Numbered from the stretch's first letter, positions 2,473-20,568 are shown. The stretch: DNA of 60,255 bases from Candidatus Faecimonas intestinavium (GCA_018716045.1 DVKL01000079.1:1-60255), one strand, 5' to 3'. Numbers and translations are program-made. Notes: generated from the letters alone by a model not told the origin.

Positions 2473-3237
2473 CTAAGACTTTAATTTAGGCAAATAAGAA
2501 AAATTTTTCATAAGAAGTCTAGATTTATCATTATCACGTTCTAAACTATCAATACTTAGATTAACTGTATAAGAATCTGCTTTTGCTAAGACCACATCAG
2601 ACACATCTGAATAATAGTTCATAACATCGCTTTCAAAATCATATACATATAATTCTTTATTAAAATTATAAGTAACATAAGAAAAAGGAGAAAGAGAAAT
2701 TTCTGTACTACCAAATTGAATAACAACAGGATTAATAAAGAAATATAAATCCGCACCATCATACAAAAAGGCAGTATCCAAAGAATAATTTAAATTATTA
2801 TTTTTTAAATAAATTCCACCCTCAGATGCATCTATTTCACTAAATTTAGGAATAACCTTCTGTTGACCGCTAGAAAGAGGAAAAACAACAGACATCTGTA
2901 CAGGAAGAATTGCCTTTTTCAAACCAGAATAATATAAAGGCTGAGAACCCAACTCAACTTCTTCTCCGTCCAATTTTAATTTTGTAATACCATTGCTTTC
3001 ACCCAAAGTGACAGCAGTGTCGTATTCAAATTTAATATCTCCAAAATAAACATAAGTTTTAACGTCTTCTGTTTTAAATTCTGATAACTGTTTTTGAGAG
3101 ACTAACACTAATATAGTCACAACAACTAAAACAACAACAAAAAGAACAGCTAATATAAATTGCACAAAATGTGCTTTTATATAATCTTTTATTCGTTGCA
3201 CTGCTAACATGAACTTCCAAATCTTTAAATTGGTCAT
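2473..3237 (-). CDS. Hypothetical N-terminally membrane-anchored extracytoplasmic protein
   Basis: 254-aa ORF with SD AAAGGTAGGGGA upstream and one TM helix (FVQFILAVLFVVVLVVVTILVLV). Its stop lies 16 nt before the start of the large surface-protein gene, so the two are probably co-transcribed. No recognisable catalytic motif. Confidence 0.6.
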   Translation of the reverse strand: MTNLKIWKFMLAVQRIKDYIKAHFVQFILAVLFVVVLVVVTILVLVSQKQLSEFKTEDVKTYVYFGDIKFEYDTAVTLGESNGITKLKLDGEEVELGSQPLYYSGLKKAILPVQMSVVFPLSSGQQKVIPKFSEIDASEGGIYLKNNNLNYSLDTAFLYDGADLYFFINPVVIQFGSTEISLSPFSYVTYNFNKELYVYDFESDVMNYYSDVSDVVLAKADSYTVNLSIDSLERDNDKSRLLMKNFSYLPKLKS

Positions 3238-3342: not shown

Positions 3343-3780
3343 TTACAAAAAATCTTTCAAATCTTTTTGGGCTTTTTTTTGAAATTTCAGAAAATCTTTA
3401 GCCAGCTTAAGATCATCCTTACTAATTTCATCGCTTGCATTTTCCACTCTCTTTTCCATTTCTATCTCTCCCATAGATAATCCTTGAATTAACAAATCCG
3501 CAATAGCTGCATCACTATTATCTGCAAGAACTTCCTTATAAATTCCCATAGAAGACATAATTTTTGCTATATTTCCTTCTTCTTCTAACTTCATATCTTT
3601 AGAAAGTAAAGATTCTTTAGCCTTTTCTTCATAAGACGAATATTCTTTAAAAATTTCTTCTACTTTTCCGGTAATTTTATTATCTTTACCTTTTAAATTA
3701 TCTAATAACTTTTGAGTAGAAAATCTTCCCATAGAAGCATTCTTATAAATCTTTTCAATTAGCTCACATTGCTTATTCAT
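3343..3780 (-). CDS. Hypothetical cytoplasmic all-helical protein
   Basis: 145-aa ORF with a strong SD (GAGGTGATG). Composition is charged and helix-prone, with no TM helix and no motif I can name. Confidence 0.55.
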   Translation of the reverse strand: MNKQCELIEKIYKNASMGRFSTQKLLDNLKGKDNKITGKVEEIFKEYSSYEEKAKESLLSKDMKLEEEGNIAKIMSSMGIYKEVLADNSDAAIADLLIQGLSMGEIEMEKRVENASDEISKDDLKLAKDFLKFQKKAQKDLKDFL

Positions 3781-3815: not shown

Positions 3816-5213
3816 TTATTTTATACTAGTTTTTGTTAAAGATTTAGTGGCTGGTCCTTTAATTAATTTTCCATCTAAAGAAAATCTTGATCCATGGCAA
3901 GGACAATCCCAAGTTTTATCATAAGAATTAAAAACCAAATGACACTTCATATGAGGACATAATAAACAAATTTTATGGATTTTATGTTCTTCATCTTCAT
4001 AAATCGCATGTAAAACACCATTAATCCTAACATAAGAAGGATTGTTTTTTTTCAAAAAAGCTTGCGTTGTTGCTTTCATATAATGAAAAGTTCCTAAAAA
4101 AGAATGAATAGCTAATCCCAAATTCATCCTTGTTGGAGAAAATAAATCTTGGTATAAAGCCGCCTGATATAAAATAAAATTAGAAATAATCTTACCGGAC
4201 AAAACACCATTAGTCATTCCCCAACCTCGATAAGCTGCTCCCACATAAAGATGACTATCAAGTCTTCCAATAAACGGTAACAAATCATGGCTGACAATAT
4301 CTTGATTATCCCATGTCACTTCAGGAATTTTATCAAATAACCTCTTAAAGTCAGAACGACTTTTATCATAATGCTTTCCAAAATCAATTTTTTCAGTCAA
4401 CCGATGACGGTTAGACCCATATAATAAATAATCTTTATAATAACGAATCGAATGTAAATCAGAATCAATATTTATAGCTGTAAAAGATGAAGAATGAGAT
4501 ACTTTCGCAGCATTTACATATTCTCTTTGTACATAAGTTTTAAGAGGAAATAAATTAGGAAGTAAAAAGAAAGGATAATGATTTGCAATTACAACATTCT
4601 TCGCAAAAAAATCTCCATTTGTAGTATGAATAAGATAACGACCATTCTCTTTTTTCATATCAAACACCAAAGTATTTTCATAAATAAGAACTTTGGAAAT
4701 CAAAGTGTTAGAAAGCCCAGATAAAAATTTTAAAGGATGAAAAACATAAGAATCAGAAATCCCAATACCAGAAGAAATATTTGGATGCTCCACTTCATAA
4801 GGATGAGCACCAAAACTTTCTAGCAACTGTTTCTCTGCTCGAATCTTTGAATCATTTTCCTTATTCAAACAAAAAAGAATAGATGGAACTTCTTCCAACT
4901 CACAAGAGATATTCCCGTCTTCAATGATTTTTAACAATTCCCAAATAGCCTCTTTCTGCGACAAATAATAAGATTTTGCCTTATCTCCTAACCTTTGATA
5001 TATATCACCCTGTAAATATGTAATTTTAGCTGTCGACCTACTAGTTACTCCCATTCCAATCTTTCCCTGTTCAAAAACAGCAACCTTCAAGTTAGAATCT
5101 CGCAAATAGTAAGCTGTACTAAGACCAGTAATACCTCCACCAATAATCGCAACATCTAATTCTCTAACAAATTTATCCGTAGTTAAAGAAGGAAAGTTTG
5201 TATTCCAAAACAT
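3816..5213 (-). CDS. FAD-dependent oxidoreductase with C-terminal Rieske [2Fe-2S] domain (YhfW-like architecture)
   Basis: Dinucleotide-binding motif VAIIGGGITGLSTAYYL near the N-terminus. C-terminal Rieske ligand boxes are CPHMKCH ... CPCHGSRF. The track ORF starts at TTG 5258, inside the upstream terminator, so I prefer ATG 5213 (MFWNTNFP...); this start is uncertain. Confidence 0.75.
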   Translation of the reverse strand: MFWNTNFPSLTTDKFVRELDVAIIGGGITGLSTAYYLRDSNLKVAVFEQGKIGMGVTSRSTAKITYLQGDIYQRLGDKAKSYYLSQKEAIWELLKIIEDGNISCELEEVPSILFCLNKENDSKIRAEKQLLESFGAHPYEVEHPNISSGIGISDSYVFHPLKFLSGLSNTLISKVLIYENTLVFDMKKENGRYLIHTTNGDFFAKNVVIANHYPFFLLPNLFPLKTYVQREYVNAAKVSHSSSFTAINIDSDLHSIRYYKDYLLYGSNRHRLTEKIDFGKHYDKSRSDFKRLFDKIPEVTWDNQDIVSHDLLPFIGRLDSHLYVGAAYRGWGMTNGVLSGKIISNFILYQAALYQDLFSPTRMNLGLAIHSFLGTFHYMKATTQAFLKKNNPSYVRINGVLHAIYEDEEHKIHKICLLCPHMKCHLVFNSYDKTWDCPCHGSRFSLDGKLIKGPATKSLTKTSIK

Positions 5214-5256
5214 AACATCACCAATAATAGCATATCCTGTTTTTTTTAATACATAC

Positions 5257-5278
5257 AAAAAAAGCCAAATCTGGCTTT
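5257..5278 (-). terminator. Intrinsic terminator closing the ATPase/Cys-rich operon
   Basis: Minus-strand RNA forms AAAGCCA-GAUU-UGGCUUU followed by UUUUG. It overlaps the stop codon of the Cys-rich gene. Confidence 0.65.
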
Positions 5279-5966
5279 AAAAATTCATAATCCATTTAAT
5301 AATTTCTTTTTTTATAGCAAAATACTCTTCTTTTTCAAACTGCATATTACAAATACAATACTTTTTATTAGAAATATGAGCACAAAACATACATTCATGT
5401 AACGAACCACAGTCCTCTATAAAAAAAGAATTACTAATTTTTGAAGAGCAAGAAACATTATAACTATTAGAACAACCAGAAGAATCATCACAACGAATGC
5501 AAAAGCTACAATGACCAGATCTTTGAGATGCAAGTAAATATTCACTTCCCTGACAACCATCAGAAAAAATCAAATTTTTGCTATCACTAGAATCACAAGA
5601 ACGATATATGTTTTCAGAACGATAAATAGTATCACTTTCAGATACATTAGTAGAATCATATACTCTTTCAGTAGTACGATAATTAAGTTGATTCCATAAA
5701 GTAACCAACTGTTCCAAGTTTTCTATTTCTTGTTTTGGCTGTTCCCAAGTTTTCCATTTCCAAGTGTTTTTTTCTGTAATATACTTTGTTGGATTGACAG
5801 AAGTAGCCCAAGTAACTTCTCCCGTAATAGAATCATTTACCTGCTGTGGCAACTTAACATCAAACGCAAATTTAGTTAAAAGTTCATCAATAGTAAATGG
5901 ATTCTTACAGTCAAAAACATTAGAAAAAATCTTATCTACTGTTTCCAACACTTGTGTTTTATTCAT
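5277..5966 (-). CDS. Cys-rich protein of unknown function (13 Cys; CxxCxxCx5C and CxxCx8CxC clusters)
   Basis: 229-aa ORF. Its ATG lies inside the last codons of the upstream ATPase gene (8-nt overlap) behind SD GAGGTGATG. The C-terminal half is Ser/Cys/Asn-rich with a roughly 8-residue beat. Confidence 0.7.
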   Translation of the reverse strand: MNKTQVLETVDKIFSNVFDCKNPFTIDELLTKFAFDVKLPQQVNDSITGEVTWATSVNPTKYITEKNTWKWKTWEQPKQEIENLEQLVTLWNQLNYRTTERVYDSTNVSESDTIYRSENIYRSCDSSDSKNLIFSDGCQGSEYLLASQRSGHCSFCIRCDDSSGCSNSYNVSCSSKISNSFFIEDCGSLHECMFCAHISNKKYCICNMQFEKEEYFAIKKEIIKWIMNF

Positions 5967-7836
5967 TTACATCACCTCTCATATTTCTTCTACTAGAAGA
6001 TTGTTCTAACAATAATTCTGTCAATTTAATATTTGGTGTAATTTCAAATTTCTTCTTAGGGGGAGATACTGTAACTTTACTCTTAGGAACTGGTTTAGAT
6101 ATCTTTGTTTTCTTAACTCCTTTAATAGGAACAAAATCAACAGTTCTTCCTTTGAACGCCGGAAGCAACACACCTCGACTTCCAAGACGTACAACGCATT
6201 CTCTATCTCCTAAATTAATTAACATCAATATACGATTCTCTTCATTATCATCACGAGATAATTTCATAGATATATTACTAGATAATATAGTAGCATCTCT
6301 TCTAGAAACCCTAAACACATAATAATTAATTACATTAGCAAAAATGGCATCTTGTAATTCTTTACTAATTTGCTCAAAATATTGTTGTGCTAAAATTAAA
6401 GATAACCCAAATTTTCGTGCCTCTGATAAAAATTTAAGCAAAATAGGATTTTCTATCGTAGAAACCTCATCTACAATAAATATAATATGTTCATCTATTT
6501 TTCTTTCTTGAATCAATGCCATTAATTGCTGCATAATAAGACCAGAAATCGTCTTAACACAAGAGTCTCCCAATACATTACGATTTAAAGAAAACAAAGT
6601 TAGAAAACTTTTCTGAATAACGTCTTGTAAAGATGAGGCATTAGTATTTTCCTCTTGAAAAACAGGAATTAATTCCATCTCATCTAGAAAAGCAATAATA
6701 GGAGCAATTGCCTCATTATAATACTTATTTTTCATTTCATTAAAATCAGTCAAAAAGAAACTATAAATACTATCTGGCAATTTCTCTGATAACAAAGATT
6801 CTCGGTACTCAACCTCTAATAATAACTTACGTAAATGTTTAAAACTAAAACTATTATGATATAAAAGCAATAATAAACTATGGCGTAAAACTCTTTCTAA
6901 CTTAGAATTATATAAATCGCTCATATAAGAAGAAAGTAAAGACATCAATAATTCTGAAGCAACCACGACATTATCCGTAGAATTAACAAACAAATTAATA
7001 CTTTGTTCAATGGATTGAAAATCAACAATAGAACTATTAGGTAAACCACCAATATCTTCTTCTAAAGAAGCATGTGGATCAATAACAACAATTTTATATT
7101 TCAATTTATAATCAAGCGTTGTTGCTAATCGACTGATAAGCAAACTAATAAACTTAGACTTACCACTACCACTAGACCCTACAATAAGAGAATGTTTATC
7201 AAAAGAATAGGTAGATAAGTTTAAATAATAATCCTTAGAAAAATAAGGAAAGGTGGAAACAGAAAGTAAAGCTTGAACAGACTCACTTTGCAACAATGGT
7301 AGAGCTTTTTGGAAATCTAAATATTTAGGTTGAGACTGATAGATATATTTTTTGTTTTTCGAAAAATCAACACTAAGTAATACCTCTGGTAAGCTTTTAA
7401 ATAACTTACGACGAATAACACTGTCCCGTTCACTTATATATAAATAACCACGACTAAGAAGTTTATCACCAGTAACATTACGAAAATATAGTTCTAACAT
7501 TTTAATATTACGAGATTTCTTTAATGATTCTCTATCCATAAGATCAACAATTGTATCTGTCAACTGATTTATATAAGGTAAACCACGCTCATAAGCAAAC
7601 GACCAATGAACATCTGAAACCTTGAACAGAAAATCAGACAATTCTCCTAATACAGTTGGCAAAACTTCTTCTGTACGAACATAATAATGAATTTTATTCA
7701 TATCGCAAACAACAAATATTTGAAAACGAGAAAAAGAGCCTAAATAACTAGAGAGTTTTAAAAGCATAGAATGCCAAGACTCTCTAGATACAAATTTGGA
7801 AGTTAAATAAATTTCTGAAACGATACTCTTCCGCAT
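5959..7836 (-). CDS. FtsK/HerA/VirD4-class P-loop NTPase (DUF87-like), orphan
   Basis: Walker A is VGSSGSGKSKF and Walker B is IIFIVDEVS, followed by SEARKFGLSLILAQQ, which is typical of HerA and type IV coupling ATPases. The track ORF start (7956) overlaps pflA. ATG 7836 (MRKSIVSE...) has SD AAAGGAG 8 nt upstream. No TM helix; Lys-rich C-terminal tail. Confidence 0.75.
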   Translation of the reverse strand: MRKSIVSEIYLTSKFVSRESWHSMLLKLSSYLGSFSRFQIFVVCDMNKIHYYVRTEEVLPTVLGELSDFLFKVSDVHWSFAYERGLPYINQLTDTIVDLMDRESLKKSRNIKMLELYFRNVTGDKLLSRGYLYISERDSVIRRKLFKSLPEVLLSVDFSKNKKYIYQSQPKYLDFQKALPLLQSESVQALLSVSTFPYFSKDYYLNLSTYSFDKHSLIVGSSGSGKSKFISLLISRLATTLDYKLKYKIVVIDPHASLEEDIGGLPNSSIVDFQSIEQSINLFVNSTDNVVVASELLMSLLSSYMSDLYNSKLERVLRHSLLLLLYHNSFSFKHLRKLLLEVEYRESLLSEKLPDSIYSFFLTDFNEMKNKYYNEAIAPIIAFLDEMELIPVFQEENTNASSLQDVIQKSFLTLFSLNRNVLGDSCVKTISGLIMQQLMALIQERKIDEHIIFIVDEVSTIENPILLKFLSEARKFGLSLILAQQYFEQISKELQDAIFANVINYYVFRVSRRDATILSSNISMKLSRDDNEENRILMLINLGDRECVVRLGSRGVLLPAFKGRTVDFVPIKGVKKTKISKPVPKSKVTVSPPKKKFEITPNIKLTELLLEQSSSRRNMRGDVNE

Positions 7837-7868
7837 AATAAGACTCCTTTTATTAAAAACAGTATAAC

Positions 7869-7896
7869 AAAAAAAGATATTATTTAAAATATCTTT
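7869..7896 (-). terminator. Weak AT-rich hairpin/terminator at the end of pflA
   Basis: Minus-strand RNA forms AAAGAUAUU-UUAAAU-AAUAUCUUU followed by a U-run and G. The pflA stop codon lies at the loop/3' arm junction of the hairpin. The stem has only one G-C pair. Confidence 0.35.
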
Positions 7897-8590
7897 CTTT
7901 AAAATAATCATATAATTGATTACACTTTTCTTTATCCATATCCTGTTTATCTTCATATGGATATGAAAGCCCTAATTTAATATATTTTTCACGTCCTAAA
8001 CGATGGAATGGAAGAAAATCTACTCTTTCAACATTATGGATATGTTGTAAATAATTTACTAAACTATCCATATATTCATAATTATCCATAATACCTGGAA
8101 CAATAACTTGACGAATCCAAATCTTTTTATTCATCTCGTTGCAAACATCAATAAAATGTTCCACTTCCTTCATTTCTAGACCAGTAATATTGTGGTATTC
8201 TTCTGGGTCAGTATGTTTAATATCTAAAAGAACTAAATCGACGTAAGATAAAAGTTCACGATAATCACCCAATCCAACGCCAGAAGTATCTATCGCAATA
8301 TGAATATTATCTTTTTTTAATAGTTTACAAACTTCAATAATAAATTCACTGTGTAATAAAGGTTCTCCTCCAGAAAAAGTAACTCCACCATTTTTCTTAA
8401 AGTAAGGTTCACACCTCTTAATTTTCTTTACTAATTCCTCTGGCGTATAATTTTCTTCTCTCTTCTTCCACATTTCAGGATTATGACAATATTTGCATCG
8501 TAACATACATCCATTAAAGAAGACTACACATCGTATACCAGGACCATCAACTAATCCAAATGTTTCTATCGAATCAATACTTGCTTTCAT
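7880..8590 (-). CDS. pflA: Pyruvate formate-lyase activating enzyme (radical SAM)
   Basis: Radical-SAM cluster CMLRCKYCHNP, a GGVTFSGGEPLL box, and a position immediately downstream of pflB. Confidence 0.9.
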   Translation of the reverse strand: MKASIDSIETFGLVDGPGIRCVVFFNGCMLRCKYCHNPEMWKKREENYTPEELVKKIKRCEPYFKKNGGVTFSGGEPLLHSEFIIEVCKLLKKDNIHIAIDTSGVGLGDYRELLSYVDLVLLDIKHTDPEEYHNITGLEMKEVEHFIDVCNEMNKKIWIRQVIVPGIMDNYEYMDSLVNYLQHIHNVERVDFLPFHRLGREKYIKLGLSYPYEDKQDMDKEKCNQLYDYFKERYFK

Positions 8591-16276: not shown

Positions 16277-16801
16277 ATGGAAAAAGAAAATCATGGGGCA
16301 TTAACTTTTTTAGGAGTAGTAATGATTCTTTATGGATTAACATATGCCGTATTAGGAACATTAAGCTTAGCTGGAACAATTACAGGCGTTTTGCCAGGAC
16401 ACGAAAAGCAAGAAATCATAGTAATAGTGCTATCCTATATGATTACACTAATTTCTCTAATTGGTGGGGTTGCTAGTATTAAAGGAAAATATAAAAGTGC
16501 AAAGACAATTGGAATTATTTTTGCAATCGTTGGATTAGCATCATTAATATCTAACCAATTAACTCAAGACATGTTTAACAGTTTTGACTGCATTGCGATG
16601 GTATTAGGTGCTGGAATTTTCTACCTAGCATCAGCAGCAGAAATTAGACACAAAGAATTAGAAAAAGCTAGAGCAAGACAAAAACAAAAGAAAGCAAAAG
16701 AAGCTACTAAAAAAGAAGAAAGGAAAAAGCCTTCAACAAAAAAAACTACTACAAAGAAAAGCACAACAAAAACAACAAAACAAAATAAAAAAGAAAAGTA
16801 A
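16277..16801 (+). CDS. Membrane protein (4 predicted TM helices) with a Lys-rich C-terminal tail
   Basis: ATG 16277 is preferred, with SD AGAGGTG 7 nt upstream. Four hydrophobic helices are followed by RARQKQKKAKEATKKEERKKPSTKKTTTKKSTTKTTKQNKKEK. Confidence 0.6.
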   Translation: MEKENHGALTFLGVVMILYGLTYAVLGTLSLAGTITGVLPGHEKQEIIVIVLSYMITLISLIGGVASIKGKYKSAKTIGIIFAIVGLASLISNQLTQDMFNSFDCIAMVLGAGIFYLASAAEIRHKELEKARARQKQKKAKEATKKEERKKPSTKKTTTKKSTTKTTKQNKKEK

Positions 16802-16819
16802 AAAATTACTTTTCTTTTT

Positions 16820-17260
16820 TTAGCCATAATTTTTAATATTACGTAAGGCTTCTCTTTTCATATCACGTTCTTTAATAGATTCTCGTTTATCATAATCTTT
16901 CTTTCCTCGGCAAACACCTAAAGAAACTTTTAAAATATTATCTTTAAAATATAATTTAATAGGAATCAAAGTTAACCCTTTCATTTGTACAGCATCTTCT
17001 AGTTTTTTTATTTCTTTTTTATGAAGCAATAATTTACGATTTCTAGTTTCTTCATGATTAAATAAATTACCTTCTTTGTATGGAGAAACAAACATATTTA
17101 AAAGATATACCTCATGGTCACGTATAATTCCATAACAATCCTTGATATTGCAATTACCTTGACGTATAGATTTAATTTCTGTACCAGTTAAAACAATTCC
17201 TGCTTCATACACTTCGTCAATAAAATAATCATGATATACTTTTCTATTTAAAATTTCCAC
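16820..17260 (-). CDS. smpB: SsrA-binding protein
   Basis: VYHDYFI..YEAGIVLTGTEIKSIR...RKLLLHKKEI is diagnostic for SmpB. Confidence 0.93.
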   Translation of the reverse strand: MEILNRKVYHDYFIDEVYEAGIVLTGTEIKSIRQGNCNIKDCYGIIRDHEVYLLNMFVSPYKEGNLFNHEETRNRKLLLHKKEIKKLEDAVQMKGLTLIPIKLYFKDNILKVSLGVCRGKKDYDKRESIKERDMKREALRNIKNYG

Positions 17261-17264
17261 TTAA

Positions 17265-18458
17265 TCAACTCCTACTAAGTCCCCAGACAAGTTCTGGATA
17301 ACGAGAACTAACAACACTTTTATACTCATCATAATAACTTTGATAATCCGAAAGAATAGAACCATCCAACTTAGAATAAGGGTAAACTTTAAAATTTCGC
17401 TTACCGCCATAATTAGAATGTGTATAAATAAGCTCCGCCTTAGGACTATCTACAGAAACAGTAATATCTTCTTCCGTTTCTACTTTATTTATTGTAACTT
17501 CCATCATCAAACCTGTCAATCTTTCAACACCAACTTGATCAGAAATAAAATTTCCTAAAGAATAAATAACTAAAGTTTTTCCATCATTAATATATTCTAT
17601 AGGCTCCACGACATGTGGATGTGTTCCAATAATAAGCTGTACCCCTAAAGATGACAAATAATTAGCAATTTCAACTTGCTCATCAGAGACTCCCATAGAA
17701 TACTCGGTACCCCAATGCATCGCAACAATAATAATATCCACTTGTCCTTTAACCTTATCGATATCATTTTTAGCCTTCTCTGGAGTATAAACATTACTTA
17801 AATATTCTTTTCCAACCGGTGTTTCTAAACCGTTTGTCCAAGTTGTATATGAAAAGAAAGCATACTTAATACCATTACACTCATAAATACGAGTTTTATC
17901 CCTTTCCTCCCAAGAAGTACGTTGTCCATCCCAGATAACATCTTTTTTAGTAGACCAATAATTAACAGAATGAATAACCCCTGCCTCTCCTTTATCCATA
18001 GTATGATTTGTTGCTAGAGAAACAAGATTAAAACCCGCATCAATAAATGCATCTCCTACTTCATCTGGAGAATTAAACTGCGGATAATTAGAATAACCCA
18101 GATTAGCACCGCCTAAAATAGTTTCCTGATTATAATAAGCAATATCATAGGTAGAAGAAATAGGTTTAATATACTCTAGCATCGGCTTAAAATCATAAGA
18201 ATTAGCAGCTACTTTTGCATCTTCATAAATAGAGCTATGTATAAGCGCATCACCCACCATAAACAAATCAAAACTATATCGCTTAGGATACTCTTCGTTT
18301 TTTATAACATTTTTATCCTGTTGCTTTGAAACATCTTTAGAACGAAATAAAAAAAAGTTAAAAAGACAAAAACTTGTACTAATAAGAACTAATAAAATCC
18401 CGCAAAGAATAAATATTTTTCCACCACGTTTTAATCTTCTAACTTTTCTCACTACCAT
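17265..18458 (-). CDS. CapA-family (PGA_cap) metallophosphatase-like membrane-anchored protein
   Basis: N-terminal TM helix. Motifs include FMVGDALIHSSIY, ATNHTMDKG, VAMHWGTEY and IIGTHPHVV. It sits 1 nt after the rnr stop and 4 nt before the smpB start. Confidence 0.7.
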   Translation of the reverse strand: MVVRKVRRLKRGGKIFILCGILLVLISTSFCLFNFFLFRSKDVSKQQDKNVIKNEEYPKRYSFDLFMVGDALIHSSIYEDAKVAANSYDFKPMLEYIKPISSTYDIAYYNQETILGGANLGYSNYPQFNSPDEVGDAFIDAGFNLVSLATNHTMDKGEAGVIHSVNYWSTKKDVIWDGQRTSWEERDKTRIYECNGIKYAFFSYTTWTNGLETPVGKEYLSNVYTPEKAKNDIDKVKGQVDIIIVAMHWGTEYSMGVSDEQVEIANYLSSLGVQLIIGTHPHVVEPIEYINDGKTLVIYSLGNFISDQVGVERLTGLMMEVTINKVETEEDITVSVDSPKAELIYTHSNYGGKRNFKVYPYSKLDGSILSDYQSYYDEYKSVVSSRYPELVWGLSRS

Positions 18459-18459
18459 A

Positions 18460-20568
18460 CTACAACTTCCTTATTATCTCAAAATCAATCGTCTTCTCCT
18501 CTTTAGAAGCACGAACTACTTTGACTAATACTCTCTCACCAATTGTATATTTTACATGACTTCTTTCACCAGTTAAAGTCATATGCTCTTCATCATAATG
18601 AAAAAAGTCTTTCATATCACGAAGAGGAACTAACCCCTCAATTAAATTATCAAGTTCGATAAACATCCCGAAACTAGTAACAGAAGATATCATACCCTCA
18701 TATTCCTCTCCAATATGATCCTCCATATATTCTGCCATCTTCATATCTTCTACTTCTCTTTCACAATCAACACTCGCTCTCTCACGATCAGAAGAATGTT
18801 CAGAAATATAAACTAATTTTTGCTCCCATTTACGAATAGTACCCATATCTAATTCTTTATTAAATAAATACGTCCTAAGCAAGCGATGTACCGTTGTATC
18901 AGGATATCTTCTTATAGGTGAAGTAAAGTGGGTATAACATTGACTAGCCAAACCATAATGTCCTAAATTTTCTGGTCGATAAACAGCTTTTTGCATGCTT
19001 CTAAGTAAAAGACTAGATAATATCTTAAACTCAGGTTTATCTTCCAAATATTTAATAATTCTTTGGACAGTTTTAGGGCTAGTATCTTTTAAATCACCAG
19101 GAACCTGATATCCAAGACTACCAACAAAACTCAAATAACTACGTAACTTTTCCTCTTTTGGCACTTCATGTACACGATAAATAAAAGGTAACGACATAAA
19201 ATAAATATGTGTCGCAACGCACTCATTAGCAGCAATCATAAAGTCTTCGATTAACTTCTCTCCAGTTCCTCTATCTCGAAGAATAATCTCAGTAGGTTTA
19301 CAATTCTCATCCACTAATATTTTAGGTTCATCTACTTCAAAATCAATATAACCACGTTTTACTTTCATCTTTCTCAATATATCTGCAAGCTCTGCCATTA
19401 AACGTAAAGATTGTTCATATGGCTCATATCCCTCAGGAATATTATTATCTTCCAAAATACTATTTACCTTCTTATAAGTCATTTGGATTCGTGAACGGAT
19501 TACACTAGGAAAAATTTCATAATCCAATTGTCTTCCATCATGATCAAATTCCATCACACAAGAAATAGCTAAACGATCTACATTAGGATTCAAAGAACAA
19601 ATTCCATTAGAAAGTTCATGAGGAAGCATTGGAATAACACGATCTACTAAATAAACACTAGTACCACGTTCCATTGCTTCATTATCTAATGGACTTTCCT
19701 CTTTTACATAATAGCTAACATCAGCAATATGAACACCTAATTTATAATGACCATTACTCATCTTCTCAATAGAAATAGCGTCATCAATATCTTTCGTATC
19801 ATCCCCATCAATAGTAAAAATTTCCATATTACGCAAATCTCTACGACCAATCATATCAATATCACGAACTTCCATAGGAAGAGTCTTTACCTCTTCTTTT
19901 ACATCAACAGGGAACTCAGTATTAATTTTATACTTATAAACAATAGATAAAATATCAACACCAGGATCATTTTTATGGCCTATAATTTCTACAACCTTAC
20001 CAGAATATCTTAAATTATTATTAAGTTTCTTTAAAAGTTCAACTACTACTTTATGACCATCAACTGCGTTTAGAGAATCCTCTTTTGCTACTTCGATATT
20101 TAATTTAATCTTAGAATCATCTAAAGTAATATGACCTTTACCCTTAGAATCAAAATTAATCTCACCAATATATCTTTCAACTTGTCTCTTTATTACTTTT
20201 AAAATACGACCCTCTAATCGATCTAAATTCATTTTACTAGTAATTTCAACCAAAACAATATCATCGTGAATTGCACCATTCATATTTTCAGGAGCAATAT
20301 AGACATCATCTTCCATATTTTCAATTTCAACAAAACCAAAACCTTTTTTATTAGCTCTCAAAGTTCCTTTTCTTAAGTGACTATCTTCAAGCATCATATA
20401 TCTTCCTTTATTAGAACAATAAATAACTACTTCTTCCTCTAATACTCGAAGCTCATCACTTAACTTTTTTACTTCATCAACATCATGCAAATCTAACTTT
20501 TCTTGCAACTCATAAATAGTAAGAGCCTTATCACTATTTTTTAATATATTTATAATATCATCTTTCAT
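18460..20568 (-). CDS. rnr: Ribonuclease R
   Basis: RNB catalytic region (FTIDGDDTKDIDDAIS, HIADVSYYV, FTSPIRRYPD) and a C-terminal S1 domain. ATG 20568 is preferred, after SD GAAGGTGAT. Confidence 0.92.
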   Translation of the reverse strand: MKDDIINILKNSDKALTIYELQEKLDLHDVDEVKKLSDELRVLEEEVVIYCSNKGRYMMLEDSHLRKGTLRANKKGFGFVEIENMEDDVYIAPENMNGAIHDDIVLVEITSKMNLDRLEGRILKVIKRQVERYIGEINFDSKGKGHITLDDSKIKLNIEVAKEDSLNAVDGHKVVVELLKKLNNNLRYSGKVVEIIGHKNDPGVDILSIVYKYKINTEFPVDVKEEVKTLPMEVRDIDMIGRRDLRNMEIFTIDGDDTKDIDDAISIEKMSNGHYKLGVHIADVSYYVKEESPLDNEAMERGTSVYLVDRVIPMLPHELSNGICSLNPNVDRLAISCVMEFDHDGRQLDYEIFPSVIRSRIQMTYKKVNSILEDNNIPEGYEPYEQSLRLMAELADILRKMKVKRGYIDFEVDEPKILVDENCKPTEIILRDRGTGEKLIEDFMIAANECVATHIYFMSLPFIYRVHEVPKEEKLRSYLSFVGSLGYQVPGDLKDTSPKTVQRIIKYLEDKPEFKILSSLLLRSMQKAVYRPENLGHYGLASQCYTHFTSPIRRYPDTTVHRLLRTYLFNKELDMGTIRKWEQKLVYISEHSSDRERASVDCEREVEDMKMAEYMEDHIGEEYEGMISSVTSFGMFIELDNLIEGLVPLRDMKDFFHYDEEHMTLTGERSHVKYTIGERVLVKVVRASKEEKTIDFEIIRKL

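Follow-up and report, generated by a model that had tools for sequence, protein, structure and literature searches.

Two-gene modules built round an ATPase of the HerA/VirD4 class are already known. In the HerA-NurA complex of archaea and Deinococcus, which is chromosomal and has a housekeeping role, NurA docks as a dimer on the ATPase ring, and in the Sir2-HerA (Nezha) and DUF4297-HerA anti-phage systems a HerA-class ATPase is encoded with one partner that carries a Sir2 NADase or a Cap4-like nuclease. The coupling proteins VirD4, TrwB and DotL have an N-terminal transmembrane (TM) anchor and a nucleotide-binding domain (NBD) with an inserted all-alpha domain. DotN, an adaptor of DotL, binds zinc through cysteines. 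The system MADS is an eight-gene operon, mad1-mad8 (bioRxiv 10.1101/2023.03.30.534895), and a survey of Patescibacteria counted 5,713 VirD4-like proteins across 2,918 genomes; most of them lie far from virB4, and they may have been 'exapted for other functions' (PMC12102498).

Here we describe a pair of overlapping genes in a stretch of 60,255 nucleotides (nt) from Candidatus Faecimonas intestinavium (GCA_018716045.1 DVKL01000079.1:1-60255; the whole stretch is called the window below). Gene 1 encodes an ATPase of the HerA/VirD4/VirB4 class and gene 2 a Cys-rich partner. A first-pass annotation of the window had compared the pair with anti-phage systems in which HerA-type ATPases accompany a single variable effector. 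Our results indicate that the pair is an uncharacterised conserved cellular machine and not a mobile anti-phage cassette; literature searches found no description of it. The highly conserved partner family, a conserved regulator and the spread of the pair across domains of life are new.

Conserved pairing of the ATPase with its partner

The bacterial loci were drawn from species-representative genomes, metagenome contigs and exact look-ups of the encoding contigs. The first-pass annotation had staked its proposal on the two genes being kept together in related genomes, and the ATPase gene was found directly 5' of the partner gene, on the same strand, in 86/86 bacterial loci with enough upstream DNA, the gap being mostly -8, -4 or -17 nt. 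Both genes are real, as they are under purifying selection and have more than 1,000 homologue clusters each. The identities of the two proteins drop in parallel across lineages, with the partner the better conserved in comparisons between lineages (55-58% vs 42-43% and 50-53% vs 37-38%). In nine genomes of the window's clade, among which dS reaches about 1, the ratio of nonsynonymous to synonymous substitution rates (dN/dS) was 0.067 for the partner and 0.17 for the ATPase, compared with 0.054 for pflA and 0.19 for the neighbouring oxidoreductase, and the order pflA-ATPase-partner was kept across the nine genomes. Synteny is stable within clades, and the genomic context differs between lineages. 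In about 100 clustered bacterial loci, only the ATPase and an AraC gene recur as neighbour families across lineages, without any conserved membrane protein; UvrA or UvrD adjoin the pair in two lineages. Searches of IMG/VR, 50,697 phage records and 72,556 plasmid records found no relative of the partner. The pairing, the slow evolution and the absence from these mobile-element collections therefore argue for a vertically inherited cellular function and not for a defence cassette, and the 'variable effector' architecture suggested in the first-pass annotation had to be abandoned.

The carriers are metagenome-assembled genomes (MAGs) of Bacilli/'Tenericutes' (about 30% G+C) and of Clostridia and Erysipelotrichales (25-27%), together with Saccharibacteria (49-53%). 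The window is 99-100% identical to human-gut contigs. The partner encoded on the contigs L031 (UMHA01073515.1, 192 kb), L032, L033 and L037 is 99-100% identical to that of the window, and at least one of these contigs is labelled human gut. The window thus probably belongs to an uncultured lineage of gut Bacilli (labelled 'Tenericutes') that is common.

The pairing recurs in archaea. Many matches of the exhaustive profile search with gene 2 were proteins of 515-540 amino acids (aa) in which the domain occurs twice. They belong to Micrarchaeota and to DPANN archaea related to these, whose genomes encode several paralogues of the partner; Pfam found nothing in these two-domain proteins. A same-family ATPase adjoins two of the three Micrarchaeota arrays. 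In the first (L024:408-16555), ten tandem two-domain paralogues, 30-56% identical to each other and all intact, adjoin a 723-aa ATPase (16571-18742, minus strand) that matches the window ATPase in BLASTP at 5e-45 over aa 150-559 and the hidden Markov model (HMM) of the family at 2e-50; in the second (L113:7663-20675), eight paralogues are followed by the same-family ATPase from 20827. The third (L016:170-5258) consists of seven tandem one-domain paralogues, which are closer to the bacterial form, and begins at the contig end. Solitary paralogues occur elsewhere in Micrarchaeota, two of them near SecDF and one by a type IV pilus-like locus (L030, L023 and L111). The archaeal ATPase carries a Lys/Ala-rich, histone-H1-like tail. 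The ATPase-partner link spans two domains of life, and the tandem two-domain fusion in Micrarchaeota suggests that the one-domain partner acts as a dimer.

The ATPase and the solenoid partner

Gene 1 encodes a soluble P-loop ATPase of the HerA/VirD4/VirB4 class. Judged from its sequence, with a Walker A motif, a Walker B motif ending in DE, the sensor/Arg block ARKFGLSLILAQQ and a match to PF01935, it belongs to the FtsK-HerA superfamily. All three motifs are largely invariant across homologues (in Walker A, G220, S222, G223, G225, K226 and S227 are invariant and S221 is conserved in at least 90%). The Pfam model DUF87/HerA (PF01935) scored 38.1 bits against a cut-off of 23.2 in a match that spans 45 residues only, and TrwB_AAD_bind (PF10412) scored 34.2 bits against 20.5 over aa 207-511. 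The AlphaFold2 model (mean predicted local distance difference test score, pLDDT, 72.6) shows an alpha/beta N-domain, an NBD with a helical insertion (aa 290-410) and a disordered tail, and the insertion, together with the TrwB_AAD_bind match, gives gene 1 the arrangement of the coupling proteins. The best Foldseek match of the model was S. solfataricus HerA (4d2i, E = 2e-11), with Sir2-HerA also among the top matches, followed by DotL (6sz9, 3e-8), TrwB (1e9r, 1e-6) and VirB4 (4ag5, 3e-6); the Foldseek probability was 1.00 for HerA, TrwB and VirB4. No TM-like segment was found in gene 1 (maximum Kyte-Doolittle mean over 19 residues, 1.34), and neither protein of the pair has a TM segment or a signal peptide.

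Although its class is confirmed, gene 1 is a member of none of the characterised families and represents a new clade of a well-known superfamily. FtsK_SpoIIIE (PF01580) stayed below its cut-off (20.8 bits vs 24, in the P-loop region only), as did TraG-D_C, and with no TM segments and no gamma-domain match listed, gene 1 falls outside FtsK/SpoIIIE. In NCBIfam, the anti-phage HerA models NF042944 and NF042943 gave 23.2 bits against 850 and 19.0 against 800, HerA_Thermprot gave 14.8 against 800, and the TraD, VirD4, CD1115, EccC and EssC models were far below their cut-offs, the equivalogs being missed by hundreds of bits. The best PADLOC match was mad8 (4.5e-14, aa 213-514), and the PADLOC HerA matches were weak and mostly covered about 25-90 residues around the P-loop. 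PHROG 5156, of unknown function, matched at 4e-15.

The N-terminal region consists of a domain (aa 1-146, pLDDT about 80-90) and a connector that is predicted with lower confidence; the domain is modelled as mixed alpha/beta and not as the HAS barrel of HerA, and aa 1-150 are basic (isoelectric point, pI, 9.4). A profile of this domain had weak matches, not significant, to archaeal ribosomal protein L1 (1mzp, 8hku; E = 0.04, aa 27-92), three L1 sequences being the sole matches. At the other end, the Lys-rich tail (aa 566-625) has a pI of 10.2, and a variable linker, Lys-rich or disordered (aa about 566-596), tethers a conserved short motif in a region with pLDDT below 50. The linker is Lys-rich in the window, Asn/Lys-rich in Clostridia, and acidic, Pro-rich and about 180 aa long in Saccharibacteria, where the motif is kept despite this length. 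A linker with a conserved end motif is the typical layout of a tethered docking peptide. Homology of the motif with the linker and C-terminal extensions of the archaeal two-domain proteins was considered and rejected, since an HMM of 120 tails scored real and shuffled archaeal sequences alike (maximum 2.6 bits for both). Note that in two lineages, L018-L020 (6124-8035) and L026-L027 (5106-7011), the ATPase gene is split into two overlapping open reading frames (ORFs; 449 + 198 aa and 526 + 115 aa) at differing positions. The split recurs in independent assemblies in which the partner gene is intact, and it could be a real frameshift, a split gene or an early decay of the ATPase.

Gene 2 belongs to a new family. 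Sequence and profile searches of Pfam, NCBIfam, PADLOC, PHROGs and the PDB gave no significant match, and Foldseek searches of the PDB and BFVD gave nothing significant; the sole PDB match was the beetle antifreeze beta-helix 1ezg (E = 7, not significant). Its homologues form more than 1,136 clusters at 90% identity, nearly all of 229-235 aa, and the exhaustive profile search yielded 1,040 representatives at 50% identity. The AlphaFold2 model (pLDDT 66.7; predicted template modelling score 0.74) begins with an alpha/beta domain (aa 1 to about 95), continues with a beta-rich region (aa about 100-195) and ends in a helix (aa 212-227). The beta-rich region is a solenoid, and the 12-residue periodicity of the sequence provides independent support for this part of the model: positions 1, 4, 7 and 10 of each coil are Ser, Cys or small hydrophobic residues, position 3 is Asn and position 5 is hydrophobic. 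The antifreeze-type 12-residue beta-helix is the nearest structural analogue of this solenoid, not a homologue.

The first-pass annotation had called the partner Cys-rich and possibly metal- or Fe-S-binding. The first part stands, with 13 Cys in 229 aa; for the second, no obvious Fe-S motif was seen. Since Ser and Cys exchange freely at the inward solenoid positions across homologues, most of the Cys content can be put down to a structural ladder within a very narrow solenoid. Among 41 bacterial members only C165, C192, C195, H197 and C204 are invariant, including the arrangement CxxCxH-x6-C, and from this sequence pattern a structural zinc site is possible. In the archaeal domains H197 and C204 are replaced, the N-terminal halves have SF in place of CxxC, and the C-terminal halves have CxxC motifs every 9 residues. 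The similarity to PsaC was not significant (E = 0.67), and no Fe-S or metallochaperone family matched.

Regulator, palindrome and layout of the locus

In 49/80 loci, a gene for a regulator with an AraC HTH_18 domain and a GyrI-like/Cass2 domain lies immediately 5' of the ATPase gene, and these regulators are 55-61% identical across lineages. The gap between regulator and ATPase, mostly 65-85 nt, holds the palindrome AAACTGAY-N(8-22)-RTCAGTTTTTT, followed by an extended -10 element, a Shine-Dalgarno sequence and the ATG. The palindrome is present in 52/110 loci (L008-L011, L018-L021, L026-L027 and about 40 metagenome loci, e.g. L055:5068-5097), nearly always at this gap alone. Because its arms are conserved in sequence and its loop is variable, the pattern suggests not so much a plain terminator as a terminator under regulation or a site to which a protein binds. 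Rfam found nothing relevant in the leader regions, including the palindrome. The window's clade has lost both the regulator and the palindrome, and its pair instead has a similar extended -10 element 3' of the pflA hairpin; such an element (TGnTATAMT) is found at the same position 5' of the ATPase gene in loci of other lineages.

The features of the window locus are summarized in Table 1. The mechanical ORF of gene 1 runs from 7956 to 5959. Its start was assigned to the ATG at 7836 (M-RKSIVSEIYLT), which has a Shine-Dalgarno sequence ahead of it, and the longer start at 7956 was rejected because the alignment of homologues begins at the former. Gene 1 and gene 2 overlap by 8 nt (ATGAATAA). The ORFs, the overlap and the separate Shine-Dalgarno sequence of gene 2 were correctly described in the first-pass annotation, and its further statements on the Walker motifs and the sensor block, on the HerA/FtsK/VirD4 class, on the lack of TM helices and on a partner without a recognisable family also agree with our searches. 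Of the terminators that it had placed on both sides, the downstream one was called by the terminator scan, and the upstream hairpin was not, because it is composed of A and T only and the scan requires G+C. Nevertheless, this hairpin folds well (-13.4 kcal/mol, z = -2.57 vs shuffles) and a U run comes after it, and it is a probable terminator that insulates the pair from pflBA.

Table 1. Features of the ATPase-partner locus (positions in the window)
Feature	Position	Strand	Evidence
Gene 1, ATPase, 625 aa	5959..7836	-	ORF, library matches, homologue alignment, structure model
Gene 2, partner, 229 aa, new family	5277..5966	-	ORF, profile searches, structure model
N-terminal region of gene 1 (aa 1-205)	7222..7836	-	structure model
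Walker A GSSGSGKS (aa 220-227)	7156..7179	-	motif location
Walker B IIFIVDEVS (aa 451-459)	6460..6486	-	motif location and homologue alignment
Sensor/Arg block ARKFGLSLILAQQ (aa 473-485), 3' of Walker B	6420-6382	-	motif location
Conserved short motif F-x-I/L-x5-L-x-D/E-L/I-L-x3-S-S-S-R-K/R (aa 597-617) near the C-terminus of gene 1	5986..6048	-	homologue alignment
Beta-solenoid of gene 2 (aa 105-204), about 8-9 coils of 12 residues	5355..5654	-	sequence periodicity and model
Shine-Dalgarno AAAGGAG of gene 1	7844..7850	-	read off sequence
Shine-Dalgarno GAGAGGTGA of gene 2, within the 3' end of gene 1	5972..5980	-	read off sequence
A/T-only hairpin and U run across the pflA stop codon, probable terminator	7868..7901	-	folding
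Promoter-like site TTTAAA-16-TATACT with TG extension (TGTTATACT), extended -10	7861..7888	-	sequence scan
Intrinsic terminator AAAGCCAGATTTGGCTTT followed by a T run, beginning at the gene 2 stop codon	5261..5278	-	terminator scan and folding

The pair is flanked upstream by pflA and pflB and downstream by a fusion gene (3816-5258, minus strand) for a flavin adenine dinucleotide (FAD)-dependent oxidoreductase (DAO) with a C-terminal Rieske [2Fe-2S] domain. The called start of the fusion gene is a TTG, and it overlaps the gene 2 terminator by a few bases. Farther out, the window encodes a class II aminoacyl-tRNA synthetase, a GNAT acetyltransferase, an AIM24-family protein and RNase R. No relaxase, integrase, type IV or type VII secretion system (T4SS, T7SS), nuclease, transposase or defence gene was found in the flanks. 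Downstream of the pair, two more ORFs of the window had no Pfam match, one of 254 aa with an N-terminal hydrophobic stretch (2473-3237, minus strand) and one of 145 aa (3343-3780, minus strand), the latter kept in sister genomes. The sister genomes L002-L006 have an additional gene of about 320 aa between the DAO/Rieske gene and the pair.

Function of the pair and comparison with known systems

The results firmly establish a self-contained module of two genes, or of three in most lineages, in which an ATPase with intact catalytic motifs and a solenoid protein are translated and inherited together under strong constraint. We tentatively favour the view that the two proteins form an obligate complex of a translocating ATPase and its adaptor, with DNA as the likeliest substrate. 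The pair would be an obligate, vertically inherited cytoplasmic machine in which gene 1 forms a ring, probably hexameric, and acts as a nucleoside triphosphate-driven translocase of the HerA/VirD4/VirB4 class, contributing the family-specific basic N-domain and the flexible tail with its conserved end motif. Gene 2, co-produced by translational coupling and probably a dimer, would dock on the ATPase as a dedicated adaptor or substrate-engaging subunit, as NurA does on HerA and DotM/DotN do on DotL. The polymer that is moved or remodelled would be a nucleic acid, with DNA as the most likely one. The adjacent AraC/GyrI-like regulator, which would sense a small molecule, may switch on the pair in most lineages, and in the window's clade a promoter of its own between two terminators would take the place of the regulator. 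DNA is considered the likeliest substrate because it is the default of the class, because the N-domain and the tail are basic and the archaeal tail is Lys/Ala-rich, and because UvrA or UvrD are neighbours in particular lineages; support for it is limited.

Several points weigh against this view. The contact between the ATPase and the partner is one that we infer, and the partner, whose model has only moderate confidence (pLDDT 66.7), showed no recognisable fold of a nuclease or of a DNA-binding protein. Not all family members have the basic tail, the Saccharibacterial linkers being acidic and Pro-rich, and the UvrA/UvrD adjacency, which is lineage-specific, could be a coincidence. In Micrarchaeota, the ratio of one ATPase gene to 7-10 paralogue genes is easier to understand if the paralogues are cargo or structural subunits than if they are a stoichiometric adaptor. 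Finally, the ATPase class also moves proteins (EssC, VirD4, VirB4), so that DNA is only a default guess.

The main rival, which we regard as possible but doubtful, is that the solenoid proteins are not subunits but clients of a coupling- or secretion-like ATPase, as in the case of VirD4 and T7SS EssC. The ATPase would then recognise the solenoid proteins and pass them on to a channel in the membrane whose genes lie elsewhere, or it would build up and take apart a polymer of them, and the Micrarchaeota arrays would be a repertoire of exported or structural subunits. This reading accounts well for a single ATPase gene beside ten (L024) or eight (L113) divergent, intact paralogues, for the array of seven in L016 and for the scattered solitary paralogues near SecDF and the type IV pilus-like locus. 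The all-alpha insertion of the ATPase (TrwB_AAD_bind) is typical of coupling proteins, the conserved C-terminal helix of the partner could be a recognition signal, and in being narrow and Cys-rich its solenoid is similar to secreted proteins braced by disulfides, among them the beetle antifreeze protein. The carriers also include host-dependent lineages with reduced genomes (Saccharibacteria and Micrarchaeota), and the orphan VirD4-like type IV coupling proteins of Patescibacteria (PMC12102498) may perhaps include members of the gene 1 family. However, the lack of TM segments and signal peptides in both proteins, and of a membrane protein conserved as a neighbour in the approximately 100 bacterial loci, speaks against this reading. 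In bacteria the partner has one copy and is conserved to an extreme degree (dN/dS 0.07), which is unusual for secreted or surface proteins, and two translationally coupled genes in a 1:1 ratio are more in keeping with a complex than with a cargo. More specifically, it seems to us unlikely that a cross-domain ATPase-driven system exporting or assembling solenoid clients with Ser/Cys ladders is shared by low-GC uncultured Firmicutes, Saccharibacteria (candidate phyla radiation) and Micrarchaeota (DPANN), the DPANN arrays being a diversified repertoire at the cell surface or the host-cell interface. If true, organisms without the classical secretion or assembly machineries would possess one of a new kind.

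A role in anti-phage or anti-plasmid defence, in which the ATPase ring would scaffold the Cys-rich partner and activate it as a toxic effector or sensor upon infection, is in our judgement quite improbable. It was suggested by the two-gene architecture shared with Sir2-HerA and DUF4297-HerA, whose HerA structures are among the best Foldseek matches, and a part of the PADLOC check proposed in the first-pass annotation was in its favour, since the ATPase matched mad8 and, weakly, HerA; the partner had no match there, nor in PHROGs or Pfam. The match to PHROG 5156, the variation of genomic context between lineages and the paralogue diversification in Micrarchaeota, which could mirror an arms race, also fit this role. 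Nevertheless, the curated anti-phage HerA models reached only 19-23 bits against cut-offs of 800-850, the PADLOC HerA matches are mostly confined to the surroundings of the P-loop, and the N-domain is not modelled as a HAS barrel. Moreover, the rate at which the partner evolves is lower than that of the ATPase and close to that of pflA, the synteny within clades is stable without defence genes, integrases or transposases nearby, the phage, plasmid and IMG/VR collections lack the partner, and an AraC/GyrI-type ligand-sensing regulator is atypical of defence islands.

Very improbable, in our opinion, is a function in metal or thiol chemistry, in which the partner would bind zinc or an Fe-S cluster or sense redox state or electrophiles, the ATPase would be needed for its loading, repair or turnover, and a xenobiotic-sensing regulator would control both. 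The 13 Cys, the invariant CxxCxH-x6-C residues with C165, the archaeal CxxC repeats and the GyrI-like ligand-binding domain of the regulator agree with such a function, but most Cys positions freely accept Ser instead, as is expected where small residues fill the core of a narrow solenoid, the archaeal domains lack H197 and C204 and have SF for CxxC in their N-terminal halves, and neither PsaC nor any Fe-S or metallochaperone family gave a significant match. We know of no FtsK/HerA-class ATPase that serves as a metallochaperone partner.

That the pair is a remnant of a conjugative or integrative element, consisting of an orphaned coupling protein and an accessory gene, is largely refuted already and hardly credible: the similarity to TrwB_AAD_bind and TraG-D_C and, in L026, the TraC-like, VirB4-like and ParA-like genes 2-5 kb 3' of the pair speak for it, but the ATPase has no TM anchor and falls far short of the cut-offs of the TraD and VirD4 models in NCBIfam, neither gene is disrupted and strong purifying selection acts on both, the partner is on 0 of 72,556 plasmids, and no relaxase, integrase or T4SS gene was found in the window or the other loci (about 100) except for the VirB4-like gene of L026, in agreement with the first-pass annotation, which had seen no obvious conjugation locus here. 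In that single lineage, the region directly 3' of the pair (L026:7821-13402) holds a large membrane glycosyltransferase-like gene (GT_STM0557_N), a TraC-like gene, a VirB4-like P-loop_TraG ATPase gene and a ParA-like gene. Two further ideas were rejected, namely a capsid with its packaging ATPase, by a jelly-roll analogy from the one- and two-domain forms (the model is a solenoid, no capsid in BFVD or the PDB matched, the ATPase size does not fit and there is no viral context), and an Fe-S scaffold like SufBCD with a beta-helix and an ATPase (no SUFBD match, and a different ATPase class). PRD1-type packaging ATPases are about one third the size of the gene 1 ATPase.

The partner family, with about 1,040 clusters at 50% identity, had no name, domain model or structure, and it is constrained like a core metabolic enzyme and locked to a distinct ring-ATPase clade in human-gut bacteria, Saccharibacteria and DPANN archaea. 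Knowing what the machine moves would give a function to two large families of 'hypothetical' proteins, could explain the many orphan VirD4-like ATPases reported in Patescibacteria, and would reveal the benefit that ultrasmall archaea draw from devoting over 1% of their genome, about 1 Mb in size, to paralogues of a single protein. For experiments on when the system is used, the conserved regulator and its operator offer a point of entry.

With MADS, the locus shares an ATPase domain whose best PADLOC match is mad8, whereas the rest of that operon was not found in the window, where the pair stands alone between pflA and the oxidoreductase gene. The solenoid of the partner resembles the Tenebrio molitor antifreeze protein in its 12-residue coil and in the small Ser/Cys residues that fill a very narrow core, but, besides the insignificant match, it differs in having no signal peptide, no TxT ice-binding face, Cys positions that are 3 apart and exchangeable with Ser, and extra N- and C-terminal domains. 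The pair has the two-gene architecture of Sir2-HerA and DUF4297-HerA, in contrast to which its partner has no recognised enzymatic domain and is better conserved than the ATPase, and the pair is vertically inherited, outside defence islands and absent from mobile-element collections. As in HerA-NurA, an ATPase of the same superfamily is encoded beside a single partner, and S. solfataricus HerA is the best structural match; on the other hand, the partner has neither a NurA-like match nor a recognised nuclease fold, the N-domain is alpha/beta in place of the HAS barrel, the ATPase reaches 14.8 of the 800 bits required by HerA_Thermprot, and no Mre11 or Rad50 gene is linked to the pair. Unlike VirD4, TrwB and DotL, gene 1 has no N-terminal TM anchor and no relaxase or T4SS linkage in the window, and the partner has no detectable similarity to any PDB chain, including those of the type IV coupling complex entry 6sz9. 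Nevertheless, gene 1 has the NBD with the inserted all-alpha domain of these coupling proteins, above the Pfam cut-off, and shares with DotL a flexible C-terminal tail with a conserved motif, which in DotL serves its adaptors.

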